DNA of 64,000 nucleotides from an uncultured Sphingomonadaceae bacterium (GCA_903871605.1 CAIQHF010000043.1:34721-98720), one strand, 5' to 3'. Positions 1 through 12,102 are shown, counted from the stretch's first letter. Made by a program: numbers and translations. The notes: generated by a model from the sequence alone, not told the origin.

Positions 1-1218
1 CGACAGGATGCTGACGCAGGACATGCCGTCCTCGACCCCGTAGAAGCCACCCGAATTTTCCGCGATTGCGATCCGCGCGCCGGCCACCTGACGGCCCGCG
101 GCATCGCCGCGCAATTGGGCGACCAGCTCGTGGATCTGGGCGAGCCCGGTCGCCCCGAGCGGATGGCCCTTGGAAACGAGCCCGCCCGACGGATTGACCG
201 GAACGCGCCCGCCGATCGAGAAATCGCCACGCTCGGCGCCGGGGCCGCCACCCCCCGCCGCGCACAGCCCGAGCGCCTCGATCTGGACGATCTCGCCCGA
301 GGAACTCGCGTCGTGGACCTCGCCGAGATCGACGTCGGCCGGACCGATGCCGGCCATTTCATAGGCCGCGGCCGCGACCCCACGGGTGACGTGGCGGGCA
401 TAGTCGTCGGGCGCACGCGCGCGTCCGCTCTTCGAGCTGCAGGCGCGCACGCGGATCGGTCGATCGATCGCCAGCCGCCCGATCGCCTCCGCCGAACAGA
501 CGATGGCGGCAGCCGATCCGTCGCTGATCGGCGCGCACATCGGCACGGTCAGCGGCCAGGCGACCAGCCGCGCCGCGATCACCTCGTCGGTCGTCATCGC
601 CTTGCGATATTGCGACAGCGGGTTGTGCACCGAATGCGTGTGGTTCTTCGCCGCGACCGCCGCGATCTGGCGCGCCGTCGTGCCGTAGGTCGCCATGTGG
701 AGACGCGCCTGTGCCGCATAGGCGTCCATCAGCGCGTTGACGCTGGGCGCATCGGCGCCCGGCGGAGCCGGCGCCAGCTTGCCCGCGGTCGCGGCGAGAT
801 AGCGCTGCGCCTCCAGAATATCGAGCGGCTGCTGGAACACCGCGAACTTGCGCGCGGGATCGTCCGAATAGAGTTTCTCGGTGCCGACGACGAGCACCAC
901 GTCGGCGAGACCGGCGCGGACATAATCGAACGCGAGGTGGAAACCCATCGTGGCGCTCGCGCACGCCGCCTCGACGTGGATCGCGCGAACCCCCTCGATG
1001 CCCAGCGGACGCAGCGCGAATTCGCCGGGGATCGACATCTCGCCAGCGACGAAGCCCTGCGTGACATTGGCGTAGATCGCCATGTCAACCACACCCGCCA
1101 CCACCCCGGCATCGGCGAGCGCCTCGCGCACCGACGATTGGGTCAGCTGGCTGTGCGTCTTGTCGAGATGCCGGCCGAACGGCGTCATGCCGACACCGGC
1201 CACGAACACGTCGCGCAT
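1..1218 (-). CDS. Thiolase-family protein (SCP2-type/non-canonical thiolase), 3' end truncated by window edge
   Basis: Not in the ORF track (no stop in window). Manual translation from ATG 1218: MRDVFVAGVGMTPFGRHLDKT...HVEAACASATMGF...ENSGGFYGVEDGMSCVSILS. Start overlaps the upstream stop (TGATG). Confidence 0.85.
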   Translation of the reverse strand, partial: MRDVFVAGVGMTPFGRHLDKTHSQLTQSSVREALADAGVVAGVVDMAIYANVTQGFVAGEMSIPGEFALRPLGIEGVRAIHVEAACASATMGFHLAFDYVRAGLADVVLVVGTEKLYSDDPARKFAVFQQPLDILEAQRYLAATAGKLAPAPPGADAPSVNALMDAYAAQARLHMATYGTTARQIAAVAAKNHTHSVHNPLSQYRKAMTTDEVIAARLVAWPLTVPMCAPISDGSAAAIVCSAEAIGRLAIDRPIRVRACSSKSGRARAPDDYARHVTRGVAAAAYEMAGIGPADVDLGEVHDASSSGEIVQIEALGLCAAGGGGPGAERGDFSIGGRVPVNPSGGLVSKGHPLGATGLAQIHELVAQLRGDAAGRQVAGARIAIAENSGGFYGVEDGMSCVSILS

Positions 1219-2765
1219 CAGATCGTCCTTTCCCGGCCTTGCCAGAAGGGTCGCCGCAGCTCGGCGCGCAACACCTTGCCGGCGTTGCTGCGTGGCAGCG
1301 AATCGATGAAGCTCAGGCTCTTGGGTGTCTTCACCGGCCCCAGCCGCTCGCGCGCAAAGGCGAGTATGGCCGCCGTGTCGGCCGCGACACCGGCGCGCAA
1401 CTCGATCACCGCGGTGACGCTCTCGCCCCATTTGTCGTCGGGCACCCCGAACACCGCGCAATCCTGCACCGCCGGATGCGCCTGCAGCGCCTGCTCGACC
1501 TCTGCGGGATAGACGTTGAAGCCGCCGGTGATGATCATGTCCTTCTTGCGGTCGACGATGTAGAAAAAGCCGTCCTCATCGCGCATCCCGATGTCGCCGG
1601 TATGGTGCCAGCCGAAGCGCGAGACCTCCGCGGTCGCGCGCGGATCCTTGTAATAGCCCGCCATCACCAGCGGCCCGCGAACGACGATCTCGCCGCGCTC
1701 GCCGGGCGGCAGGATGGTGCCGTCGTCGTCCATAACCTCGACGATCGACAGAAGGTTGGCACGACCGCAGCTGCCCGGCCGCGCGAGATCGCCCCGGGCA
1801 TCGAGATGCTCGTGCGGCGGCAGCGCGGTGACGCACATCGGGCTCTCGGTCTGGCCGAAGCTGGCGTTCATCACCGGGCCGAACACCTCGATCGCCTCGC
1901 GCAGACGATCGAGCGACATCGGCGCGCCCGCATAGGAGATATATTCGAGGCTCGAGAGATCGCGGCGCCGCACGTCGGGCTCGCCGAGCAGCATGTAGAT
2001 CGCGGTCGGCGGCAGGAACATGTAGGTGACGCGGTGGCGCTCGATCGCGTCGAGCACCGCGGCAGGTTCGAATCTGGGAAGCACGACGACGGTACCCCCG
2101 AGCGCCATGCTAGCCAGCGCGAGCGGGCCCGCCGCGTGCGTCATCGGCGCCGCGACGCAGTTCACCGGCGCCACCTTCATCGGCATCGACGCGACCAGGC
2201 TCGACACCAGCGATTGCCAGACCAGATTCGTCAGCATCACCCCCTTGGAGCGGCCGGTGGTGCCGCCGGTCGCTCCGAGGAAGGCCAACTCCTCGGGGCG
2301 GCCCTCGCGTCGCTGCGCTACCTCGCCGTCGTCGCCCAGCCAGTCCTCGAGAAAGGCGTCGGCCTCCGGAAACGGCCGGTCGAGCGCGATGTAGCGGCGG
2401 ATCGTCGGGCAGTCGGCGCGGAAGCGCGCGATGCGATCGGCGACCTCGGAGTGGACGAACAGCGTGTCGACGTCGAGCAGGTCGAGCAGATAGGCGTTCT
2501 CGTCCTCGCTCGCGCGATGATTGGCCATCACCCACACGCCGTCGGCGCGCAGCAATCCCAATATGCACTCGAACGCGCGCGGATCGTTGCCGCTCAGCAC
2601 CGCGGCGTGCGCCCCGGACGCGAAACCGTCGCGGATCAGCCCGTTGCCGATGCGGTTGCTGCGCGCGCGCACCGCGTCATAGGTCCGCACGCGCTCGTCG
2701 GTGACGAGACAGGGCGACGCATGCGCGATGCGGGCGCCGCGATCGAAATAGTCGATCATCCGCAC
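1218..2765 (-). CDS. AMP-dependent acyl-CoA synthetase / CoA ligase
   Basis: TGGTTGRSKG P-loop, FGQTE, TGDIG, DRKKDMIITGGFNVYPAEVE, C-terminal GKVLR Lys; 515 aa. Confidence 0.93.
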   Translation of the reverse strand: MRMIDYFDRGARIAHASPCLVTDERVRTYDAVRARSNRIGNGLIRDGFASGAHAAVLSGNDPRAFECILGLLRADGVWVMANHRASEDENAYLLDLLDVDTLFVHSEVADRIARFRADCPTIRRYIALDRPFPEADAFLEDWLGDDGEVAQRREGRPEELAFLGATGGTTGRSKGVMLTNLVWQSLVSSLVASMPMKVAPVNCVAAPMTHAAGPLALASMALGGTVVVLPRFEPAAVLDAIERHRVTYMFLPPTAIYMLLGEPDVRRRDLSSLEYISYAGAPMSLDRLREAIEVFGPVMNASFGQTESPMCVTALPPHEHLDARGDLARPGSCGRANLLSIVEVMDDDGTILPPGERGEIVVRGPLVMAGYYKDPRATAEVSRFGWHHTGDIGMRDEDGFFYIVDRKKDMIITGGFNVYPAEVEQALQAHPAVQDCAVFGVPDDKWGESVTAVIELRAGVAADTAAILAFARERLGPVKTPKSLSFIDSLPRSNAGKVLRAELRRPFWQGRERTI

Positions 2766-2775
2766 CGGCGTGCGC

Positions 2776-4233
2776 TCAGCGTCGCAGCGTTAGGTCGAGC
2801 GCCTCGGAGCGAAGCCGCACATAGGGCGTCTTGGCGACCGCCATCAGCTTGCGCGCCTGCTCGAGCTCGGGCGACGACAATGTCGGATAGTCGCGGCGCG
2901 GCGGGCCGGCGCGGCGCATCTTCTCGATGTCCGACGCAGGCACCAGCGCGCGCAGGATCAGCTCGTCGTCGTCCTCGCCGGTGCCGTGCTGGCGGCGCAG
3001 ATCGTCGATGCTCGGCTGTTCGGGCGGATGCTCGACGATGTCCTTCGCACGCGGCGCCGCCATGATGCGGTCCATCACCTGCCCGTCGATCGGCGCGGGG
3101 GGCTCGCCATAATAGCCCGCGGCATATTGGATCACCTCGTCGGGCACGATGCCCCAGCGCTTGCCGGTGACGATGTTGAGCACCGCGACCGTGCCGACCA
3201 GCTGCGCGAACGGCGTCGCCATGCCGGGATAGCCGAGCTCGCGGCGGACCGCCGCGACCTCCTCCAGCACCTCGGGCAGTTTCTCGAGCATGTTCTGCTG
3301 GATCAGCTGGTTGCGGAGCGTACCCATCATCCCGCCGGGCACCTGCGAGGTCAGCGCCGCGACGTCATATTCATAATGCTGGTTGACCAGATAGCCTGCC
3401 GTCCGGCCGACGCGCTCGAAATGATCGGAGACGGGCTTGAGCAGCGCGGTGTCGATCCCGTGGCTGTGCCCCAGCGCCTCCATATTCTTGACCATGATGT
3501 CGATCGACGGGATCGAGGGGCCATTGGACATCGAGCGCGATGCGGTGTGCAGCACGGTCACGCCGAACTCGACCGCGTCGCAATAGGCCTTGGCGGACTG
3601 GCCGAGCATGTTGTTCGAATGCATCTCGATCGGCTTGCCGCGCGCCTTGGCGACGATCGCGGGCACCAGCGTCTTGATCCGGTCGCGATCGAGCACGCCG
3701 CCGGTGTCGTAGAGGAGAAGGCTGTCGACCTCGGGCAGCGCGGAGAGCTTGTCCGCCTTGTCCGCCCAAAAGGCGTCGTCATGGACCGGCGACAGCGTGA
3801 ACAGCATCGTGCCCGCGACCTTGCAGTCGTGCTTCTTCGCCAGGCTGGCGAGCCGCTGCATCTTGCCGATGTTGAACAGGACGTCGTAGATCCACCAGGA
3901 TCGCACGCCGTGCGCGCACAGCCGCTCCATCCACAGGTCCATCAGCGCGTCGGGCGTGAAGCCGAACGTCACCGAGCCGTTGGAGCGAATGCCACCGCGC
4001 ACCGGGGTCCGGCCGATCTGGCTCATCACCAGGTCGAGCCCCGCCCAGGGATCCTCCTGACAGTGGCGGATCAGCACCTCGAACAGCGAGGAGCCGGCGA
4101 AGCTGATCGTGTCGTAGCCCGTACGGTCGATCGTCGAGGCGACGGGATAGGCCATCCCGGCCTGCATCCGCATCCCCCACAGGCTCTGCTGGCCGTCGCG
4201 CATGGTCTCGTCGAGGAACTGGATATGCGCCAT
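2776..4233 (-). CDS. Biotin-dependent carboxyltransferase subunit (PycB/OadA TIM-barrel family), divergent active site
   Basis: DETMRDGQQSL, QVPGGMMGTL and ATPFAQLVG motifs; lies next to BC and BCCP genes. Confidence 0.85.
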   Translation of the reverse strand: MAHIQFLDETMRDGQQSLWGMRMQAGMAYPVASTIDRTGYDTISFAGSSLFEVLIRHCQEDPWAGLDLVMSQIGRTPVRGGIRSNGSVTFGFTPDALMDLWMERLCAHGVRSWWIYDVLFNIGKMQRLASLAKKHDCKVAGTMLFTLSPVHDDAFWADKADKLSALPEVDSLLLYDTGGVLDRDRIKTLVPAIVAKARGKPIEMHSNNMLGQSAKAYCDAVEFGVTVLHTASRSMSNGPSIPSIDIMVKNMEALGHSHGIDTALLKPVSDHFERVGRTAGYLVNQHYEYDVAALTSQVPGGMMGTLRNQLIQQNMLEKLPEVLEEVAAVRRELGYPGMATPFAQLVGTVAVLNIVTGKRWGIVPDEVIQYAAGYYGEPPAPIDGQVMDRIMAAPRAKDIVEHPPEQPSIDDLRRQHGTGEDDDELILRALVPASDIEKMRRAGPPRRDYPTLSSPELEQARKLMAVAKTPYVRLRSEALDLTLRR

Positions 4234-4240
4234 CAGCGCG

Positions 4241-5608
4241 TCACTCCGCAGCTATTGCGAGGCTCGGGAGCAGGGTCTGCTCGAGCCAGCGCGTGTGAAT
4301 GGTGTTGGCGACGAAATCGGGATGGGCGACGATCTCGCGGTGGAGCGGGATCGTCGTCGGCACGCCCTCGATGCGGAAATCGGCAAGCGCCTTTTGCAAG
4401 CGCTCGATCGCCTGGGCGCGGGTATCGCCGGTGACGATCAGCTTGCCGATCATGCTGTCGTAATATGGCGGGATCGTCGCCCCTTCGCCCATATGGCTGT
4501 CGAGGCGGATGCCGTCGCCTTCGGGCGGCTGCCAGCGCGTGATGCGGCCCGGCGACGGACGGAAATCGAGCGCCGGATCCTCGGCATTGATCCGGCATTC
4601 GATCGCATGACCCGCGATCGCGATATCCGACTGGTCGAGGCCGAGCGCCTCGCCGCCGGCGATGCGCAGCTGCCACTGGACCAGATCCTGCCCGGTGACC
4701 ATCTCGCTCACCGGATGCTCGACCTGGATGCGCGCATTGACCTCGATGAAGTAGATCTCCTGCCGCTCGACATCGTAGAGGAATTCGGCGGTGCCTGCGT
4801 TGCGATAGGCGACGCTCTTGGCCAGCCCGACCGCGGCGGCATGGAGCTGTGCGCGCAGCGCATCGGGCATCGCCGCGCAGGGCGCCTCCTCGATCAGCTT
4901 CTGGTAGCGGCGCTGAACCGAGCAGTCGCGCTCGCCGAAATGCAGCACCTTGCCGCGCCCGTCGCCCATCAGCTGGACCTCGACGTGGCGCGCCTTGCCG
5001 ACGAAGCGCTCCATGAACAGCGTGCCGTCGTTGAACGCGGCGAGCGCCTCGGCCGACGCCTTCTGGAACCCCGCCTCGACCTCGTCGCCGTCGTGCGCGA
5101 TCACCATGCCGCGTCCGCCCCCGCCCGCTGACGCCTTGAGCAGCACCGGATAACCGATCCGATCCGCCTCGCGGCGCGCATCGGAGGCGCTGGCGATCTC
5201 GTTGGTGCCTGGTACGAGCGGCACGCCCGCCGCCGCCGCCATCTCGCGCGCGCGCAGCTTGTCGCCGAGCGCCTCGATCATGTCGCCCTCGGGGCCGACG
5301 AAGACGATGCCATGCGCATCGCACAGCCGCGGCAGGACGGCGCGTTCCGAGAGGAAGCCATAGCCGGGGTGCAGCGCATCGCACCCCGTCTCGCGTGCGG
5401 CATGCACCACGAGCCGCGCGTCGAGATAGGATCTGGCGGCGGGCCCCGGCCCGAGGACGACGGCCCGATCGGCGAGCCGGGCGGCCGCGCTGTCGGTGTC
5501 CGCCGCCGAGACGCCGATCACCGTCTCGATACCGAGCGCCTGCGCGGCACGAACGACGCGAAGCGCGATCTCGCCCCGGTTGGCGACGAAGAGGCGGCGA
5601 ATGGCCAT
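4241..5608 (-). CDS. Biotin carboxylase subunit (AccC-like)
   Basis: ANRGEIALRV, HPGYGFLSE, KASAGGGGRGM, RDCSVQRRYQKLIEEAP, EVNARIQVEHPVSE, YYDSMIGKLI. Confidence 0.95.
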   Translation of the reverse strand: MAIRRLFVANRGEIALRVVRAAQALGIETVIGVSAADTDSAAARLADRAVVLGPGPAARSYLDARLVVHAARETGCDALHPGYGFLSERAVLPRLCDAHGIVFVGPEGDMIEALGDKLRAREMAAAAGVPLVPGTNEIASASDARREADRIGYPVLLKASAGGGGRGMVIAHDGDEVEAGFQKASAEALAAFNDGTLFMERFVGKARHVEVQLMGDGRGKVLHFGERDCSVQRRYQKLIEEAPCAAMPDALRAQLHAAAVGLAKSVAYRNAGTAEFLYDVERQEIYFIEVNARIQVEHPVSEMVTGQDLVQWQLRIAGGEALGLDQSDIAIAGHAIECRINAEDPALDFRPSPGRITRWQPPEGDGIRLDSHMGEGATIPPYYDSMIGKLIVTGDTRAQAIERLQKALADFRIEGVPTTIPLHREIVAHPDFVANTIHTRWLEQTLLPSLAIAAE

Positions 5609-5612
5609 CCGA

Positions 5613-6122
5613 TCAGCCCTTCGGATCGATCGCGAACAGCGGCTGGCCCGCCTCGACCATCGCGCCGTCGGTCGCCAGCACCTTCGCGACCCTGCCCGCC
5701 ACGCCGGCCCGGACCGCGGTAAACAGCTTCATCACCTCGACGAGGCAGAGGTCGCTGTCCGCCGTCACCTGCGCACCGATCTCGACATAGACGGGGTCGC
5801 CGGGCTTTGGTGCGCGGTAGAAGGTGCCGAGATAAGGGGCGCGGACGATCTCGAGACCGTCGAGGTCGTCCGCGCCAGGTGCCACCGGGGGCGGTGTTGT
5901 GGTCGTCCCGGCGACGGGGGGCAGAGCAGCGGCGGGGGGCGGAGAAGCGGCGGCGCCGGCTCGCGCGGGTGTCGCGCTGTGCTGGATCGTCGGCGATGCG
6001 GTGCCGTCGGTCGACAGATGCAGCTCGAACCCATCGAAGCGGATATGGAGTTCGGCGCAGTGCGACGCATCGAACCGCGCGACCAGCGCCTCGACATCCT
6101 CCGGGCGGATCGGATCAGCCAT
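5613..6122 (-). CDS. Biotin carboxyl carrier protein (AccB-like)
   Basis: Ala/Pro linker, APYLGTFYRAP, biotinylation motif EVMKL. Confidence 0.92.
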   Translation of the reverse strand: MADPIRPEDVEALVARFDASHCAELHIRFDGFELHLSTDGTASPTIQHSATPARAGAAASPPPAAALPPVAGTTTTPPPVAPGADDLDGLEIVRAPYLGTFYRAPKPGDPVYVEIGAQVTADSDLCLVEVMKLFTAVRAGVAGRVAKVLATDGAMVEAGQPLFAIDPKG

Positions 6123-7716
6123 GACGCAGCGCCTCGATCTCGTCGCGCGTCAGCCCGGCGCCGCGATCCTTCAGCCGGCGCGACTGACGCTGCTCGATCC
6201 GATACAGCGCGTCGACGCGCGGATCGTCGGGATGCCAGCGTATCCAGCTGTCGGAAAGCTTCCGGTAGTCGGGCGTCATCGCCGCGGGGGTGAAAGCCTG
6301 CGCGCGTTGGTTATACTCAGCAAGCGTCAGCCGGCCCTGCGTGGTCGTATAGACGTCGCGCTTGTCCGGATGGTGCGTCGATCCCGCGAGCGGCCGGTCA
6401 GGCGCAGCGGCGCCGGGTTCGTCGACGACGCTCAGCGGAACGTGCGACAGATAGCGCGCGGGGCGGTTGCTGTGCTGCATCATGCTGTAGGGGGACAGCT
6501 GCTGGCTCGGCAGGTCGACCAGCCCGACGAGCTCGCCGAGAAAATCGCGGCCGAACTCGTCGTTGAACAGATGGCGGAAACGATCGGCACGGTGGTCGAT
6601 CGTCATCCAGTCGTCGACGTCATAGACGCCCGCGACATGCGCCAGATCCTTGGGCATCGAGAAATAGATCAGCGCCCCCGCATCCATCATCTGGTCGCGC
6701 GACCATCCCGACATCTGCTTCCACAGCGCCACCGTCGCGTGCTTGAACGTCTCGGTCAGTCGCTCGAAGGTGTCGGCAAGCTCCTCGGCCGATCCCATGC
6801 CGACCGGCTGATAGCCCTCCGAGAGCACGTCCGACGTGTAGAGGCCGACACCGACCAGCTTGTCGCCGGTGAGTTCGGGGCGCGACTCGAAGCTGCCCCA
6901 ATCGTCCATCAGATAGAAATGGCAGTCCTTCACCGCCATCGTCACGGTCAGATGGTTGTAGGGAATGTCGTCGGCGACCCCATCGAGCCAGGGATAGTCG
7001 CCGACCGCGAGATCGGTGAAATCACGGACAATCATCTCGCGGTCGTCAGCGATACGATAGGGGCCGCTGTTGTTGAGCGTCACCCGGCTCTCGCAGCTGA
7101 CCAGGAACCCATATTGCGAGACGGCGGCGAGGAAGGTCTGCGCCGCCCTGTGGAGCCGGTCGCCCGCCACGCAGTCATGAAGATCGGCGTGGAAGACCTG
7201 GACGCGCCGCTCGGGCAGCGACTGGACACGCTGGCCGAATTCGCGTGCGTTGAGATGGCCGTCCTCGCGCTGGTAGGCGAGCTTGTAGCGCCGCCAGAAG
7301 TCCATGACGGTGATCACGTCCTCGGCATGATCCTCGGGCCGCAGCAGGCCGAAGTTGATCAGCATCTCGCGGCCAAGCAGGAAGAAGGTCGGCAGGCCCC
7401 AGCTCGGCAGGCTGCCGAACTTGCCGCCCATCGTCCGCGCGCGATCCCCGATCTCCTCGGCGCTCATCACCGCCTCGATCTTCCGCAGCAAGGCGGGATA
7501 GCGGTAGAAGCTCGTCAGATAGGAGAGCAGCATATAGGCCGGGACAGGGAATAGCTTGGATTCCTGGACCGTGCGCGTGACGCACAGCCAATAGGTGTCG
7601 TCGCCGATCGTCTGGATCGCATTATTGGCCTCGAGCACCGCGGCATAGCTCGGGCGGGCCACCGCCGGCGCCTCGACGATCCGCGCACCTTCCTGAATTT
7701 CGGACACTGACCGCAC
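6115..7716 (-). CDS. Hypothetical protein (~533 aa), first gene of the carboxylase operon
   Basis: Long ORF with typical codon usage. GTG 7716 is preceded by AAGGAG (alternative starts 7758/7785). Its end overlaps the BCCP start by 8 nt. No family motif recognised. Confidence 0.8.
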   Translation of the reverse strand: MRSVSEIQEGARIVEAPAVARPSYAAVLEANNAIQTIGDDTYWLCVTRTVQESKLFPVPAYMLLSYLTSFYRYPALLRKIEAVMSAEEIGDRARTMGGKFGSLPSWGLPTFFLLGREMLINFGLLRPEDHAEDVITVMDFWRRYKLAYQREDGHLNAREFGQRVQSLPERRVQVFHADLHDCVAGDRLHRAAQTFLAAVSQYGFLVSCESRVTLNNSGPYRIADDREMIVRDFTDLAVGDYPWLDGVADDIPYNHLTVTMAVKDCHFYLMDDWGSFESRPELTGDKLVGVGLYTSDVLSEGYQPVGMGSAEELADTFERLTETFKHATVALWKQMSGWSRDQMMDAGALIYFSMPKDLAHVAGVYDVDDWMTIDHRADRFRHLFNDEFGRDFLGELVGLVDLPSQQLSPYSMMQHSNRPARYLSHVPLSVVDEPGAAAPDRPLAGSTHHPDKRDVYTTTQGRLTLAEYNQRAQAFTPAAMTPDYRKLSDSWIRWHPDDPRVDALYRIEQRQSRRLKDRGAGLTRDEIEALRHG

Positions 7717-7798
7717 GACCCTCTCCTTGTCCGGGTCTCGTGCCCGCTGGTCGATCATGTGCCGCCCGAGACGAACCTCTGTCAAGACCGTTGGGCGT

Positions 7799-7813
7799 AA
7801 TCGTCGGACGATT
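7799..7813. promoter_or_regulatory. Perfect palindrome AATCGTC-G-GACGATT, candidate GntR/FadR-type operator
   Basis: 7-bp arms with a 1-nt centre in the divergent intergenic region. Confidence 0.45.
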
Positions 7814-7966
7814 TTGTCACTTTGTGGACGATGGCGCCCTTCCTGTGCCGCCCGCCATGCTTCGCCGTCCGGTTGCGGCGTCCGGCGTGCGCGGAAAAGC
7901 CACCAGCGCTTCCCCGCACCCCTGTCAGGCTGCTACGCCGGTGCGACGCGATGGACGGGGGATGCG

Positions 7967-8881
7967 ATGATCAGATCTTGGGCAGGCCGGGGCATGGCGC
8001 TTGGTGTCCTCGCGCTGCAGACGGTCCCGGCGGGCGCGCAGCCCGCCACACCGCCCCTGCCCGCCACACCGACCTTGCCCGCCGCGCTGACCACCGACCC
8101 GCCGCGCGACCCGCTCCATCCTGCACGGCTGGCCCAGATCCGTTTCACCACGCACGGACTCGCCGTCCCCGCGCGTTTGTTCGTCGCGGCCGGAGCGGGC
8201 ACGCATCCGACCATCCTGCTTCTGCACGGCTTTCCCGGGACCGAGCTCAACCTCGATCTCGCGCGCGTCCTTCAGCGCGACGGCTGGAACGTGCTGGCGA
8301 TACATTATCGCGGCGTCTGGGGCGCGCCGGGGCAGTTCAGCCTGACGCATGTCGTCGAGGACGCGCAGTCCGCGCTTGCCTGGCTGCGTTCGCCCGCGGC
8401 AGCGCCTTATGGCATCGACGCCGGACGGATCGTCCTGCTCGGCCACAGCATGGGGGGCTTCGCGACCGTCATGCTGGGTGCCGACAAGGGGGTTGCCGGC
8501 TACGTCCTGATCTCGGCGGCCGACATGGTGGCCGATACGTTGAAGGCGGCGGCGGAACCCAGCGAACGGGCGAGCTACGCGGACGATGCGAGCTACACCA
8601 ACGCCAGCTTCGACAGCCTCGCCGCCGACGTGCGCGCGCATGCGCGGGCGTGGGACTGGACGACGCGCGCCGCGCTGATGGCGGGGCGTCCGGTACTGGT
8701 TCTGACCTCGGACGATGGCCTGGCGCCAAGCGACGATGCGGCCGCGGCGGCGGTGGCGCAGGCCGGCGGCCCGGCGCCGACGGTCGAGCATATGACCACC
8801 GACCACAGCTATAACGATCATCGTATCGCGCTCGCCGCGACGATCGTCCGCTGGCTCGACGCCCACTTTCCGAAACGCTGA
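7967..8881 (+). CDS. Exported alpha/beta hydrolase (Ser-type)
   Basis: Signal-peptide-like N-terminus (LGVLALQTVPAGAQ), HGFPG oxyanion motif, GHSMGG elbow, late His (DHSYNDH). Confidence 0.85.
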   Translation: MIRSWAGRGMALGVLALQTVPAGAQPATPPLPATPTLPAALTTDPPRDPLHPARLAQIRFTTHGLAVPARLFVAAGAGTHPTILLLHGFPGTELNLDLARVLQRDGWNVLAIHYRGVWGAPGQFSLTHVVEDAQSALAWLRSPAAAPYGIDAGRIVLLGHSMGGFATVMLGADKGVAGYVLISAADMVADTLKAAAEPSERASYADDASYTNASFDSLAADVRAHARAWDWTTRAALMAGRPVLVLTSDDGLAPSDDAAAAAVAQAGGPAPTVEHMTTDHSYNDHRIALAATIVRWLDAHFPKR

Positions 8882-8889
8882 CAGCCGGT

Positions 8890-10509
8890 TCAGCGCGCGA
8901 TATCGGCCGCCAGCAGGTCGGCCGCCCGCTCGCCGATCATCATCGCGGTCGCGTTGCTATTGGCGCTGACCAGGCGGGGCATGATCGAGGTGTCCGCGAT
9001 CCGCAGACCGCTCAGGCCGATCACGCGCAGGCGCGGATCGACCACCGCGTCCGTGCCGCTGCCGATGCGGCACGTGCCCGAGGCGTGATAGAAGGGTTCG
9101 ATCGTGGCGGCGACATAGGAATCGAGCGATCGCTGGTCGGTGTCGTCGGCCGGCGGCTGGACCGAGCGACCGAAGACGCCCTCGAACGTCGCGCCCGAAA
9201 GCCATGTCTGGACCTTCGCGACAGCGGCCGTCATCCACCGCCGGTCGAGCGGATGCGACAGCATCGGGTACGAGATGACCGGCTGGTCGGCGGGATCGGC
9301 CGACCGGATCGACACCTGCCCGCGCGCATTGGGCCAGCAGAGATCAACGGTGAACATGGCCTGCCCGGTCTTCGCCAGCCGCAGCTTCCCGTCGCGCGTC
9401 TCGTAGCCGAACGGAAAGATGCTGAGCTTCGCCTTGGAGAGCGGATCGGCATCGTCGGCGAGGAAAAAGGCGGAGGCCTGGCTCACGAGATCGGTCAGCA
9501 GCCCCCGCCCGCGCAGATATCGCAGCGCGGCGCCGATCACCGCCGGGCTTCTGAGCTGCTGGTTGATCGACGGCATCGATGTGCCGCGCACCAGCCGCAC
9601 CCCGCAATGCTCCTGCAGATTGCATCCGACACCGGGCCGGTCCAGCCGCGTGCGCACGCCGATCGACGCAAGCGTCGCGGCGGGGCCGATTCCCGACCGC
9701 AGCAGGATGGCCGGCGTTGCGACCGCCCCCGCCGACAGGACGATCTCGTCGCCCGCCATGATGGTGCGCACCCCGCGACGATCGCGCACCACCACGCCGC
9801 TGGCGCGCCGTCCATCGAAGGTCAGGCGATCGCACAGCGTTTCGCAGACAATGTCCAGATTGGCGCGTCGCCCGTCCATTCCGGGATAGTCGATCGCCGG
9901 AGACGAGCGGCGACCCCGACGCTGATTGACCTGCCCGTAGGCCACGCTTCCGGGCGCGTGATCGCGATTATAGTCGTCGGTCAGGCGGAACCCCGATCGT
10001 TCGAGCCCCGCGACGAAACCGCGCGTGATCGGGTGCGCATCGGGCGCAAGCGAGCGGATGGCGAGCGGCCCGCCGTCGCCGCGGATCGAGGCGTCGCCGA
10101 ACCCGCAGCGTTCGAGGCGGCGATAGAAGGGGAGCACGCTGTCATAGTCCCAGCCGCTCGCGCCCATTGCCGACCACCAATCGAAATCCGCGCGCTCCCC
10201 CCAGATATAGAACATGGTGTTGATCGAGCCGCCGCCGCCGAGCAGCTTGCCCGCAGGCCATTCGGGCGCGCGCCCGCCGACGCTCGCATCGGGCTCGACG
10301 GTCCGCTTCCAGTCGTAGCGGGGATTGCCGACAAGCCATCTGACGCCCGCGGGATGCCGCACGATCGCGCGGCGCGCGTCCCCGCCCGCCTCCACGAGCA
10401 GGATCCGCCGCGACGGATCGTCGCTCAGCCGGCTGGCCAGCACGCATCCCGCCGCGCCGCCGCCGACCACGATCACGTCGTAGTGCGCGGCGGCCGCCGC
10501 ATGTCGCAT
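8890..10509 (-). CDS. GMC oxidoreductase (choline dehydrogenase-like)
   Basis: GGGAAG FAD motif, GKLLGGGGSIN, GVGCNLQEH, HASGTCRIG, ANSNATAMMIGE. Confidence 0.92.
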   Translation of the reverse strand: MRHAAAAAHYDVIVVGGGAAGCVLASRLSDDPSRRILLVEAGGDARRAIVRHPAGVRWLVGNPRYDWKRTVEPDASVGGRAPEWPAGKLLGGGGSINTMFYIWGERADFDWWSAMGASGWDYDSVLPFYRRLERCGFGDASIRGDGGPLAIRSLAPDAHPITRGFVAGLERSGFRLTDDYNRDHAPGSVAYGQVNQRRGRRSSPAIDYPGMDGRRANLDIVCETLCDRLTFDGRRASGVVVRDRRGVRTIMAGDEIVLSAGAVATPAILLRSGIGPAATLASIGVRTRLDRPGVGCNLQEHCGVRLVRGTSMPSINQQLRSPAVIGAALRYLRGRGLLTDLVSQASAFFLADDADPLSKAKLSIFPFGYETRDGKLRLAKTGQAMFTVDLCWPNARGQVSIRSADPADQPVISYPMLSHPLDRRWMTAAVAKVQTWLSGATFEGVFGRSVQPPADDTDQRSLDSYVAATIEPFYHASGTCRIGSGTDAVVDPRLRVIGLSGLRIADTSIMPRLVSANSNATAMMIGERAADLLAADIAR

Positions 10510-10521
10510 GCCGGCTTCGCC

Positions 10522-11868
10522 CTAGAGACGCCGCGCGACGCGCGCGCCGAAATAGAAGCAGGTCGCGGCGGGAAGCAGCAGCAGCGATGCCGTGATCGCC
10601 AGCGAATAGGGCAAGGCGAGCGGATTGTGGAACACCGCCTCGGTGAAGAAGGCGACGAGCCACGGCCCGCCGCCTGCGCCAACCAGCGTGGACAACATCA
10701 TCGTCACCGCGACGAACTGCGCGCGCATGATGTTGGGCACGAAAGCGGGGATCGCCGCCATCGCCGGCCCGATCGCGATCACGACGCAGAAGGTGATCCC
10801 GCCCAGCGCGATCGCCGCCACCGTCGCCGATCCGCTAAGCGCGAGCACGAGACCGAGCGGGAAGGTGACGGCGCTCGCGACCAGCGGGATCAGGAAATTC
10901 GCGTCGCGCCGGCCATTATCGCGCAGATGGTCGCAGAGCTTGCCGCCCATGATGCTCGCCAGCGCGCCGATGATCATGAAATAGAGGCCATAGACGAGGC
11001 CGATCTGGGTCGCGGTCCACCCGAATTTGCGCACGAACAGCGATACCGCCCAGTTGGTCAGGCCATATTGATAGGTGACCAGGAGGATGATGCCGCCCAG
11101 CAGCGTGCCGAGATAGCCACGATTCGCGATCGTATAGCGTGCGAAGGCGATCATGCTCGTGCCGTTGCCCGCGCCGTCCTCTTGTTCGCCGGGGCGGCGG
11201 GGCGGCTCGCGCACCGCGAACAGCGCCGCCAGCAGTGCGACCCCCGGCAAGCCCATGATCCCGAACGACAGCTGCCAGCCGTGAACCGCGCCGAACAGCG
11301 GCAGCACGACATCGCCGTTCATCGGCAGCAGCTTGAGCAGCAGCCCGCCGAACACGAGCGACGCGCCGGTGCCGAGAAAGCTGGCACCGGTCACCGTGCC
11401 GAGAGCGCCGGCAAGCTTGGCCTTGGGGAAATAGTCGCTGAGCAGCGAGAAGGCCGCCGGCAGCAGCGACGCATCGGCCAGACCGGTCAGCAGACGCGCG
11501 GCGAACAGTGCGGAATAGCTTTTCGCCATCATCGAGGCGACCGTCGCGACGACCCATAGCGCCGTACCGATGGTGATGATCCGGTCGCGCCGCCAACGGT
11601 CCGCCAGCCACCCGATCGGGATCGCCACCAGCGCGTAGAAGAGCGCGAAGGCCAGACCCTGAAGCAGGCTGACGTCGATATCCTGGATATGGAAGTCGCG
11701 CGACAGCGGCTCGACCGTGAGGCTGAGGATCTGGCGCTCCATGTTGCTGACCAGCTGGAGGCCGCTCAGGATCGTCACCACCAGCCAGGCATATCCGGCC
11801 GACCCGAACGCATAGCCCTTGACGGCGATCGGATCGGCGCTGGGCGGGACAAGGGTCTGGACGGTCAT
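10522..11868 (-). CDS. MFS transporter (spinster-like)
   Basis: About 12 hydrophobic segments, GWLADRWRRDR motif A; ATG 11868 with GAAGGA RBS. Confidence 0.9.
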   Translation of the reverse strand: MTVQTLVPPSADPIAVKGYAFGSAGYAWLVVTILSGLQLVSNMERQILSLTVEPLSRDFHIQDIDVSLLQGLAFALFYALVAIPIGWLADRWRRDRIITIGTALWVVATVASMMAKSYSALFAARLLTGLADASLLPAAFSLLSDYFPKAKLAGALGTVTGASFLGTGASLVFGGLLLKLLPMNGDVVLPLFGAVHGWQLSFGIMGLPGVALLAALFAVREPPRRPGEQEDGAGNGTSMIAFARYTIANRGYLGTLLGGIILLVTYQYGLTNWAVSLFVRKFGWTATQIGLVYGLYFMIIGALASIMGGKLCDHLRDNGRRDANFLIPLVASAVTFPLGLVLALSGSATVAAIALGGITFCVVIAIGPAMAAIPAFVPNIMRAQFVAVTMMLSTLVGAGGGPWLVAFFTEAVFHNPLALPYSLAITASLLLLPAATCFYFGARVARRL

Positions 11869-12102
11869 CAAATATCCTTCAGCTCGGCGGGGATCGCGCG
11901 CGGAGAGCGATCGGGAACGGGCCGGCCACGCCGCGGACGCGGCGTTGGTCATGCCGTCCATGACAGATCATGCTGCGATGCGGAACGCCCGTTCCAAAGC
12001 GATCGTCCCGCTTTTCTCCACCAGTTGGATAAGTGGGACATGTGGCGGGGCGGCGACCGCGCCGAACCCTAAGCTGCCCGCCGGCTGCTTAGGAGACGAT
12101 CG

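Follow-up and report, generated by a model that had tools for sequence, protein, structure and literature searches.

A biotin-dependent carboxyltransferase with two replaced metal ligands, encoded beside a predicted multi-protein kinase in Sphingomonadaceae

In carboxyltransferases (CTs) of the pyruvate carboxylase (PC) type, a carbamylated lysine and a His-x-His motif are regarded as the catalytic hallmarks. What reaction, then, is catalyzed by a CT that carries tyrosine at the lysine position and asparagine at one of the histidines, and with which partners does it work? The question is raised by a 64,000-nucleotide stretch of DNA from an uncultured Sphingomonadaceae bacterium (GCA_903871605.1; CAIQHF010000043.1:34721-98720, i.e., G000:C43:34721-98720), in which a PycB/OadA-like CT gene is located beside genes that encode biotin carboxyl carrier protein (BCCP) and biotin carboxylase (BC). 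This stretch is referred to as the window, and coordinates without a prefix are positions in it; its genome of origin (G000; 4.28 Mb, 100% complete) was assembled from lake-water metagenomes. We propose that the BCCP-BC-CT trio is probably the carboxylase core of a catabolic route resembling the Hpe and Acv pathways, in which the action of a kinase, a carboxylase, and a phosphatase on a ketone would be followed by coenzyme A (CoA) activation and thiolysis.

The CT was aligned by HMMER to OadA (2nx9), two-subunit PC (5ks8), and the transcarboxylase 5S subunit (1rqb), and the residues were then counted. The alignments extend from residue 1-8 to approximately residue 396-406 (E values, 1e-43 to 1e-62) and are gap-free at the motifs, with the following correspondences to OadA (2nx9):

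Asp13 (in RDGQQS): OadA Asp17
Tyr175 (in LLYDTGG): OadA Lys178
His205 (in MHSNN): OadA His207
Asn207 (in MHSNN): OadA His209

Lys178 of OadA is the carbamylated lysine at the zinc site (PMC2881705). Two of the four usual metal ligands are replaced in the CT (Lys by Tyr175 and His by Asn207), and Asp13 and His205 are retained. Asp17, His207, and His209 presumably complete the metal site of OadA, with equivalent residues acting likewise in PC and 5S. A preliminary description of the locus had read RDGQQS, LLYDTGG in place of an IKDMAG-type motif, and HSN in place of HxH, had named the lysine as a metal ligand of canonical CTs, and had called for alignment to PC and OadA structures; the gap-free alignments bear out these motif readings, placing Tyr175 at the carbamyl-lysine position and Asn207 at the second histidine.

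These substitutions are widely conserved. Tyr175, His205, and Asn207, together with Arg12, Asp13, Gln16, and Arg83, are invariant among the homologues with 76-93% identity (121/121), and the motifs L[LF]YDT[GA]G and H[SA]NN recur in all 12 clade members drawn from at least four alphaproteobacterial families, with identity down to 62%. This invariance across the 121 close orthologues and the 12 more distant ones indicates that the substitutions are a selected state rather than the result of sequencing error, chance, decay, or pseudogene formation. The clade alignment revealed no clade-specific lysine able to replace the carbamyl-lysine. It did reveal 35 clade-specific invariant residues, including the hydrophobic replacements Trp114, Val118, Phe120, and Leu173, which the alignment would place on strands 4 and 6 of the barrel, and the GGMMGT motif of the biotin site is invariant. 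Since tyrosine replaces the carbamyl-lysine and asparagine the second histidine, the enolate-stabilizing pocket appears to have been rebuilt. For the metal status of the CT, two arrangements are conceivable: Asp13, His205, and Asn207 may still coordinate a metal, in which case a harder one is likely, or the pocket may function without a protein-bound metal, with Tyr175 as a hydrogen-bond donor.

The CT gene is one of six tightly packed genes, all on the minus strand, within window positions 1-7785 (operon A). In the order of transcription, they are as follows:

6115..7716, minus strand: 533-amino-acid (aa) hypothetical protein (Hyp); probable GTG start at 7716 after AAGGAG, with the longest open reading frame (ORF) reaching 7785
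5613..6122, minus strand: free-standing BCCP; PF00364, 59 bits; biotinyl Lys132 in EVMKL
4241..5608, minus strand: ATP-grasp BC; full-length Biotin_carb_N, CPSase_L_D2, and Biotin_carb_C domains
2776..4233, minus strand: PycB/OadA-like CT; PF02436, 91 bits; no biotinyl domain
1218..2765, minus strand: AMP-forming, FadD-like acyl-CoA ligase; PF00501 and PF13193; best NCBIfam match PRK06187, under the cutoff
1..1218, minus strand: SCP2/Ltp-type thiolase, 409 aa; PF22691 and PF00108; PRK08256 and PRK06064 under the cutoff

Adjacent genes overlap or are separated by 4-10 nucleotides (nt). The 3' end of hyp overlaps the start of the BCCP gene by 8 nt, and the thiolase ATG at 1218 and the stop codon of the ligase gene have one base in common; the final 9 nt of the thiolase gene fall before the window start. 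BCCP, BC, and CT are thus encoded by three distinct minus-strand ORFs with Pfam or NCBIfam matches, in one operon with a CoA ligase and a thiolase, just as first described. The BCCP scored 97.6 bits against TIGR00531 (cutoff, 115), and the BC scored 601.8 bits against PRK08591 (cutoff, 597). The latter is one of five BC paralogues in its own genome, with 49% identity to the probable housekeeping AccC, and a genome search identified no second copy of the PycB-like gene. The nearest public homologues are from Sphingomonas, Novosphingobium, and Sphingopyxis. Beyond the operon, an alpha/beta hydrolase gene with a long N-terminal extension (7727-8881, plus strand) is divergent from operon A and is followed by genes for a GMC oxidoreductase and an MFS transporter (8890-11961, minus strand); this trio is not kept beside the cluster in the other genomes examined.

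In the CT, the PYC_OADA domain (PF02436) scored 91 bits against a cutoff of 27, and the HMGL-like TIM barrel (PF00682) scored only 22.5 bits, under its cutoff of 29; the full-length alignments to 2nx9 and 5ks8 nevertheless assign both domains to the CT. It shares with PycB, OadA, and 5S the TIM-barrel and PYC_OADA fold, the Asp of RDxxQS, the LLRG-type Arg, and the first His. It differs from them in that the full ligand set (Asp, carbamyl-Lys, and His-x-His) is absent and the position of the catalytic Thr/Ser in GGxx[TS]N is offset by one. None of the PycB/OadA/5S NCBIfam cutoffs was passed (10 related models; the best, PRK09282, gave 296 versus 402 bits), and no Biotin_lipoyl domain was matched in Pfam, the BCCP being separately encoded.

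Genome sampling yielded a bimodal distribution, with orthologues at identities of at least 62%, a second group at 29-36%, and single-chain PCs at approximately 25%. The members at 31-36% identity are located in acetovanillone-type clusters, in which BCCP, BC, CT, and a HAD phosphatase are accompanied by either a PpsA/PpsB-like kinase (L016) or a UPF0261 MarK-type kinase (L019). In the maximum-likelihood tree, CTs with the Tyr/Asn combination form a monophyletic clade (support, 100/100; stem, 0.86), and the Acv/MarK-type clade (100/100) is its sister group with a support of 91/90. Both clades have GGMxGT where PycB and OadA have GGM[LI][ST]N, and both have a C-terminal extension of approximately 90 residues. 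Lys and HxH are retained in every Acv/MarK-type CT examined. Placement of the CT within the Acv/Hpe clade proper was ruled out, since AcvE and the Acv/MarK-type CTs keep Lys/HxH and form a separate clade. The CT instead appears to represent a sister branch of the kinase-coupled ketone carboxylases, a family first described in 2022. The phylum-level sample contained no further orthologues outside Alphaproteobacteria. One CT on another branch (G498; L040:10029-11603, G498:C4), with 29% identity and followed by a BCCP gene only, carries FYDASG and N-I-H. Because of this second case, replacement of Lys by Tyr coupled to one His-to-Asn change would have arisen at least twice.

The nearest characterized relative is AcvE, with 36% identity to the CT over the full length. 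The acvABCDEF locus of Sphingobium sp. SYK-6 was fetched for comparison (AcvCDE, SLG_06520-06500; AcvAB, kinase; AcvF, phosphatase). Acv is a kinase- and phosphatase-coupled carboxylase pathway that leads through a beta-keto acid to CoA chemistry (bioRxiv 10.1101/2022.04.28.489975). As in the window, separate BCCP, BC, and PycB-like CT genes, the last without a biotinyl domain, are located in one operon and are accompanied by a kinase and a phosphatase. The differences are that AcvE has IKDPGG and HAH (HAHC) where the CT has LLYDTGG and HSN, that the two proteins belong to separate clades with long stems, that the Acv kinase is a PpsAB-like pair without detectable homology to Hyp (neither a PpsAB/CreHI-type nor a MarK-type kinase is present here), and that the phosphatases AcvF and HpeD are HAD proteins, whereas the phosphatase here is SurE. 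HpeCBA of Rhodococcus rhodochrous GD02 is a proven ATP-, bicarbonate-, and biotin-dependent carboxylase that acts on the phosphorylated ketone only, with a phosphatase and then a CoA synthetase acting after it (PMC9618137). The published Hpe pathway, with the predicted XccABC of Aromatoleum aromaticum, has the same logic as the route proposed here; the Hpe kinase (HpeHI) is CreHI/Pps-like, and the last Hpe step uses a hydrolase (HpeF), whereas a thiolase is encoded here. A further sphingomonad cluster, the MarK-linked acetovanillone cluster of Novosphingobium aromaticivorans, consists of BCCP, BC, CT, and HAD with an alternative kinase (PMC12624787); a cluster of the same type is found in G090. 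MarK differs in being a single UPF0261 protein, and its linked CT has the canonical Lys/HxH. The use of an alternative kinase in this cluster shows that kinases are interchangeable modules around such carboxylases.

In the present case, the predicted kinase is encoded partly outside operon A. The gene order (i.e., operon A, an antisense surE gene, and operon B, with K1, K3, K4, and K5 in that order) is kept in Sphingomonas sp. SUN019, Novosphingobium sp. PASSN1, Aquisediminimonas sediminicola, and the present genome. In the last, surE and operon B are located just before the window (G000:C43:30283-34708), with the following features:

K1 (operon B): 250 aa, ending in a PEP-utilizers His-swivel domain
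K3 (operon B): 200-aa protein without an assigned family
K4 (operon B; G000:C43:30666-32399): 577 aa (490-590 aa across genomes), PPDK_N and His-swivel domains (PF01326 and PF00391)
K5 (operon B; G000:C43:30283-30669, L013:10284-10670, minus strand): 127 aa (127-138 aa across genomes)

K4 scored 667.9 bits (cutoff, 456) against NF004531, the model for pyruvate phosphate dikinases (PPDKs) without the phosphoenolpyruvate (PEP)/pyruvate barrel, and it too lacks this barrel. The characterized member of this family is VadK (Rv1127c) of Mycobacterium tuberculosis, a barrel-less, PPDK-derived protein that autophosphorylates on histidine and is described as a regulator of the methylcitrate cycle (PMC13400623); unlike VadK, K4 is embedded with a carboxylase and three or four partners. 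Its own genome carries another SurE besides that of the cluster, and the cluster copy is conserved between operons A and B. In G462, kinase and carboxylase genes form a single operon, with genes for a cytochrome P450 (P450), a luciferase-like monooxygenase, K1, a Hyp-K3 fusion, K4, BCCP, BC, CT, and two family III CoA-transferases. The last two replace the acyl-CoA ligase, whose position is conserved in four other genomes. Of the 12 clade members whose context was examined, 10 have an ATP-grasp BC gene between the BCCP and CT genes and translationally linked to them. The Acv/Hpe/MarK-linked sister group and the role of the upstream gene, together with adjacent genes outside the operon, as a candidate partner kinase had escaped the preliminary description.

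Several further features accompany the cluster. K5 is weakly BCCP-like (BLASTP E value, 0.02), with LLGES where BCCP has VMKLF, and its homologue at L044 has a weak Biotin_lipoyl match; K5 would thus resemble a biotinyl domain but lack the lysine that carries biotin. An APH-family phosphotransferase gene (approximately 327-342 aa) adjoins the cluster in the present genome (G000:C43:27962-30233; L013:7963-10234, plus strand) and at L022, L043, and L044, paired with a gene for either a 394-425-aa protein or a small 139-143-aa protein, an arrangement reminiscent of LvaAB-type hydroxyacyl-CoA kinases. In the cluster copy at L044, on a contig of a metagenome-assembled genome from ENA, BC and the barrel-less PPDK are missing, the thiolase is split, and the BCCP is truncated, reflecting either gene decay or an assembly artifact. 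The G095 locus (L015; G095:C1:2031001-2051000) contains genes for two acyl-CoA dehydrogenases, an enoyl-CoA hydratase, an MBL-fold protein, an SCP2-type thiolase, and a P450.

Hyp, the first protein of operon A, has no family match in Pfam, NCBIfam, or PDB sequences. Its 996 homologues are all annotated as hypothetical, and an exhaustive search yielded 426 representative relatives. In P0297, P0302, and P0312, an N-terminal PEP-utilizers His-swivel domain is fused to a Hyp-like domain, and P0244 and G462 carry a Hyp-K3 fusion (48% identity to K3 in its free-standing form). Such fusions to kinase parts, together with the genomic context, lead us to read Hyp as a kinase component, probably the part that binds the acceptor, in place of the PEP/pyruvate barrel that the PPDK-derived kinase lacks. 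The nearly invariant residues of Hyp include five arginines, which fit phosphate handling. Modeling by AlphaFold2 from a 40-sequence alignment resulted in a predicted local distance difference test (pLDDT) score of 89.3 and a predicted template modeling score of 0.88 (pLDDT from a single sequence, 33). A Foldseek search of the PDB with this model returned no match (best E value, 0.33), and Hyp looks like a new fold. Two other assignments were considered. A diverged AcvA/PpsA N-terminal domain was unsupported (BLASTP E value, 0.95; hhalign probability, 0.1%), and a carboxylase subunit is less likely than a kinase subunit, given the fusions to kinase parts and the occurrence of the kinase module without a carboxylase.

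In the catabolic route that we favor, a multi-protein dikinase consisting of the VadK-like PPDK K4, the His-swivel protein K1, Hyp, and the 200-aa K3 would first phosphorylate the substrate. BC would then carboxylate the biotin of BCCP using ATP and bicarbonate, and CT would transfer CO2 from carboxybiotin to the carbon beside the ketone of the phosphorylated substrate, yielding a beta-keto acid. The dedicated SurE paralogue would take the phosphate off, the acyl-CoA ligase (or the CoA-transferases) would form the beta-ketoacyl-CoA, and the thiolase would cleave it, releasing acetyl-CoA. We infer the order of these steps and the ketone nature of the substrate by analogy, and the ligase probably activates the carboxylation product. 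The SurE and BC paralogues that belong to the cluster count in favor of a dedicated system. Acetone and acetophenone carboxylases likewise perform an ATP-activated ketone carboxylation to a beta-keto acid, followed by a CoA ligase and a thiolase. These hydantoinase-type enzymes, of which Apc is discussed in the Acv preprint, are functional analogues but unrelated proteins, which are biotin independent and have no separate kinase. For the direction of the reaction, the presence of a dedicated ATP-grasp BC makes a carboxylase much more likely than a decarboxylase. The earlier proposal of a carboxylase or decarboxylase acting on a substrate other than pyruvate or oxaloacetate thus stands in its substrate part, given the missed cutoffs, the lost ligands, AcvE as the nearest relative, the presence of a PEP carboxylase, and the neighboring genes; of the two directions that it left side by side, carboxylation is favored.

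Several points weigh against a kinase-coupled ketone carboxylase. Loss of the carbamyl-lysine is expected to abolish the activity of canonical enzymes, as in PC mutants. The kinase module (K1, a Hyp-K3 fusion, and K4) also occurs without a carboxylase at L026/L027 (GCA_902829765.1; P0244), amid genes for a type I polyketide synthase (PKS), KAS III, and acyl carrier protein, and because of this PKS-rich locus the acceptor of the kinase need not be a ketone. The orthologous CT of G095 (62% identity) is accompanied by BCCP without an adjacent BC or Hyp. Flanking genes vary between genomes (e.g., P450s, alcohol dehydrogenases, and APH-type kinases with small proteins), and because they differ, the substrate class could be either aromatic or alicyclic/aliphatic. 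Finally, searches for expression found the sequence only in metagenome DNA runs and in no RNA runs.

Among the alternatives, the one that survives best, although we regard it as unlikely, retains the same system with other chemistry: a phosphate on or next to the carbonyl (as an enol or an ortho/alpha ester), perhaps with Mg2+, would replace the lost Lys/His ligands, and non-phenolic ketones would be carboxylated. PPDK/PEP synthase chemistry generally phosphorylates an enol oxygen, and neither AcvA (by the hhalign result given above) nor MarK is related to the acceptor domain of the kinase. We take the PC equivalents of Gln16 and of Arg83, in the LLRG motif, to bind the carboxylate that adjoins the carbonyl undergoing reaction; because the Tyr/Asn clade retains both residues while Acv-type CTs have Thr in place of Arg83, there are hints of an anionic group of the substrate, possibly phosphate, close to the carbonyl. 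The new ligand set, with Asp, Asn, and Tyr oxygens, would be harder, and some contexts appear non-aromatic (i.e., acyl-CoA dehydrogenases, a hydratase, and a P450 in G095, and a P450 with a luciferase-like monooxygenase in G462). Pushed further, and with the same modest chance of being right, the Tyr/Asn CT and its four- or five-protein kinase might constitute a new biotin-dependent carboxylation of ketones without a para-phenol handle, in which Hyp would position the phosphate on or beside the carbonyl and this phosphate, with Mg2+, would replace the metal center during enolate formation; candidate substrates would include alicyclic, isoprenoid, or aliphatic methyl ketones and ortho-substituted aryl ketones. 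However, the conserved SurE suggests that the phosphate outlasts carboxylation, as in Hpe, which an enol phosphate would not, and an enol phosphate has no proton to give back to biotin. The roles of Arg83 and Gln16 are, moreover, drawn from alignment and general background on PC, not from a structure.

It is improbable that the CT is a catalytically dead, regulatory, or scaffolding paralogue, with the operon chemistry proceeding without carboxyl transfer by CT. The loss of two of four metal ligands and the lack of a clade-specific lysine to stand in for the carbamyl-lysine would fit such a protein. Its conservation at 62-93% identity across families, with Arg12, Asp13, Gln16, Arg83, His205, and GGMMGT invariant, argues otherwise, as does its pairing, which in every case includes a BCCP that can be biotinylated and in nearly every case a dedicated BC; furthermore, neither the cluster nor a search of the rest of the genome provides another CT candidate. 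We give a similarly small chance to operation in the reverse or transfer direction, with a beta-keto acid as the substrate of a biotin-dependent decarboxylase or transcarboxylase in the manner of OadA or 5S. These two are the closest solved structures, and CT occurs with BCCP but no adjacent BC in G095 and with BCCP only in G498. Against this are the linkage of BC between BCCP and CT in most clade members, as counted above, the absence of membrane OadB/OadG-type partners or a 12S-type subunit nearby, and the general readiness of beta-keto acids to decarboxylate without biotin. Least probable is an ordinary two-subunit PC or oxaloacetate decarboxylase, for although NCBI and JGI name homologues "pyruvate carboxylase" or "oxaloacetate decarboxylase alpha subunit" and PRK09282 is the best NCBIfam match, an ordinary PC is ruled out by the shortfall against that model, the loss of the carbamyl-lysine and one histidine, the lack of a fused biotinyl domain, the catabolic operon context, the sister-group relationship to ketone carboxylases, and a PEP carboxylase for anaplerosis in the same genome, so that the "pyruvate carboxylase" annotation of the homologues is almost certainly wrong.

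Kinase-coupled biotin-dependent ketone carboxylases were already known; what appears to be new here is the rebuilt CT pocket and the predicted multi-protein kinase with a putative novel-fold component. A large conserved clade in which the lysine and one histidine among the defining residues of PC-type CTs are replaced, with the BC/BCCP operon intact, would constitute a natural experiment on enolate stabilization in this TIM-barrel site. The partner kinase, which would include a 533-aa protein without a detectable structural relative, would add to the "phosphorylate, then carboxylate" mode of ketone catabolism, first described in 2022, a third type of kinase that is far more elaborate. The names pyruvate carboxylase and oxaloacetate decarboxylase, almost certainly wrong for these CTs, skew reconstructions of sphingomonad metabolism, and the identity of the substrate could reveal a new degradation route for lignin-, terpenoid-, or steroid-derived ketones.

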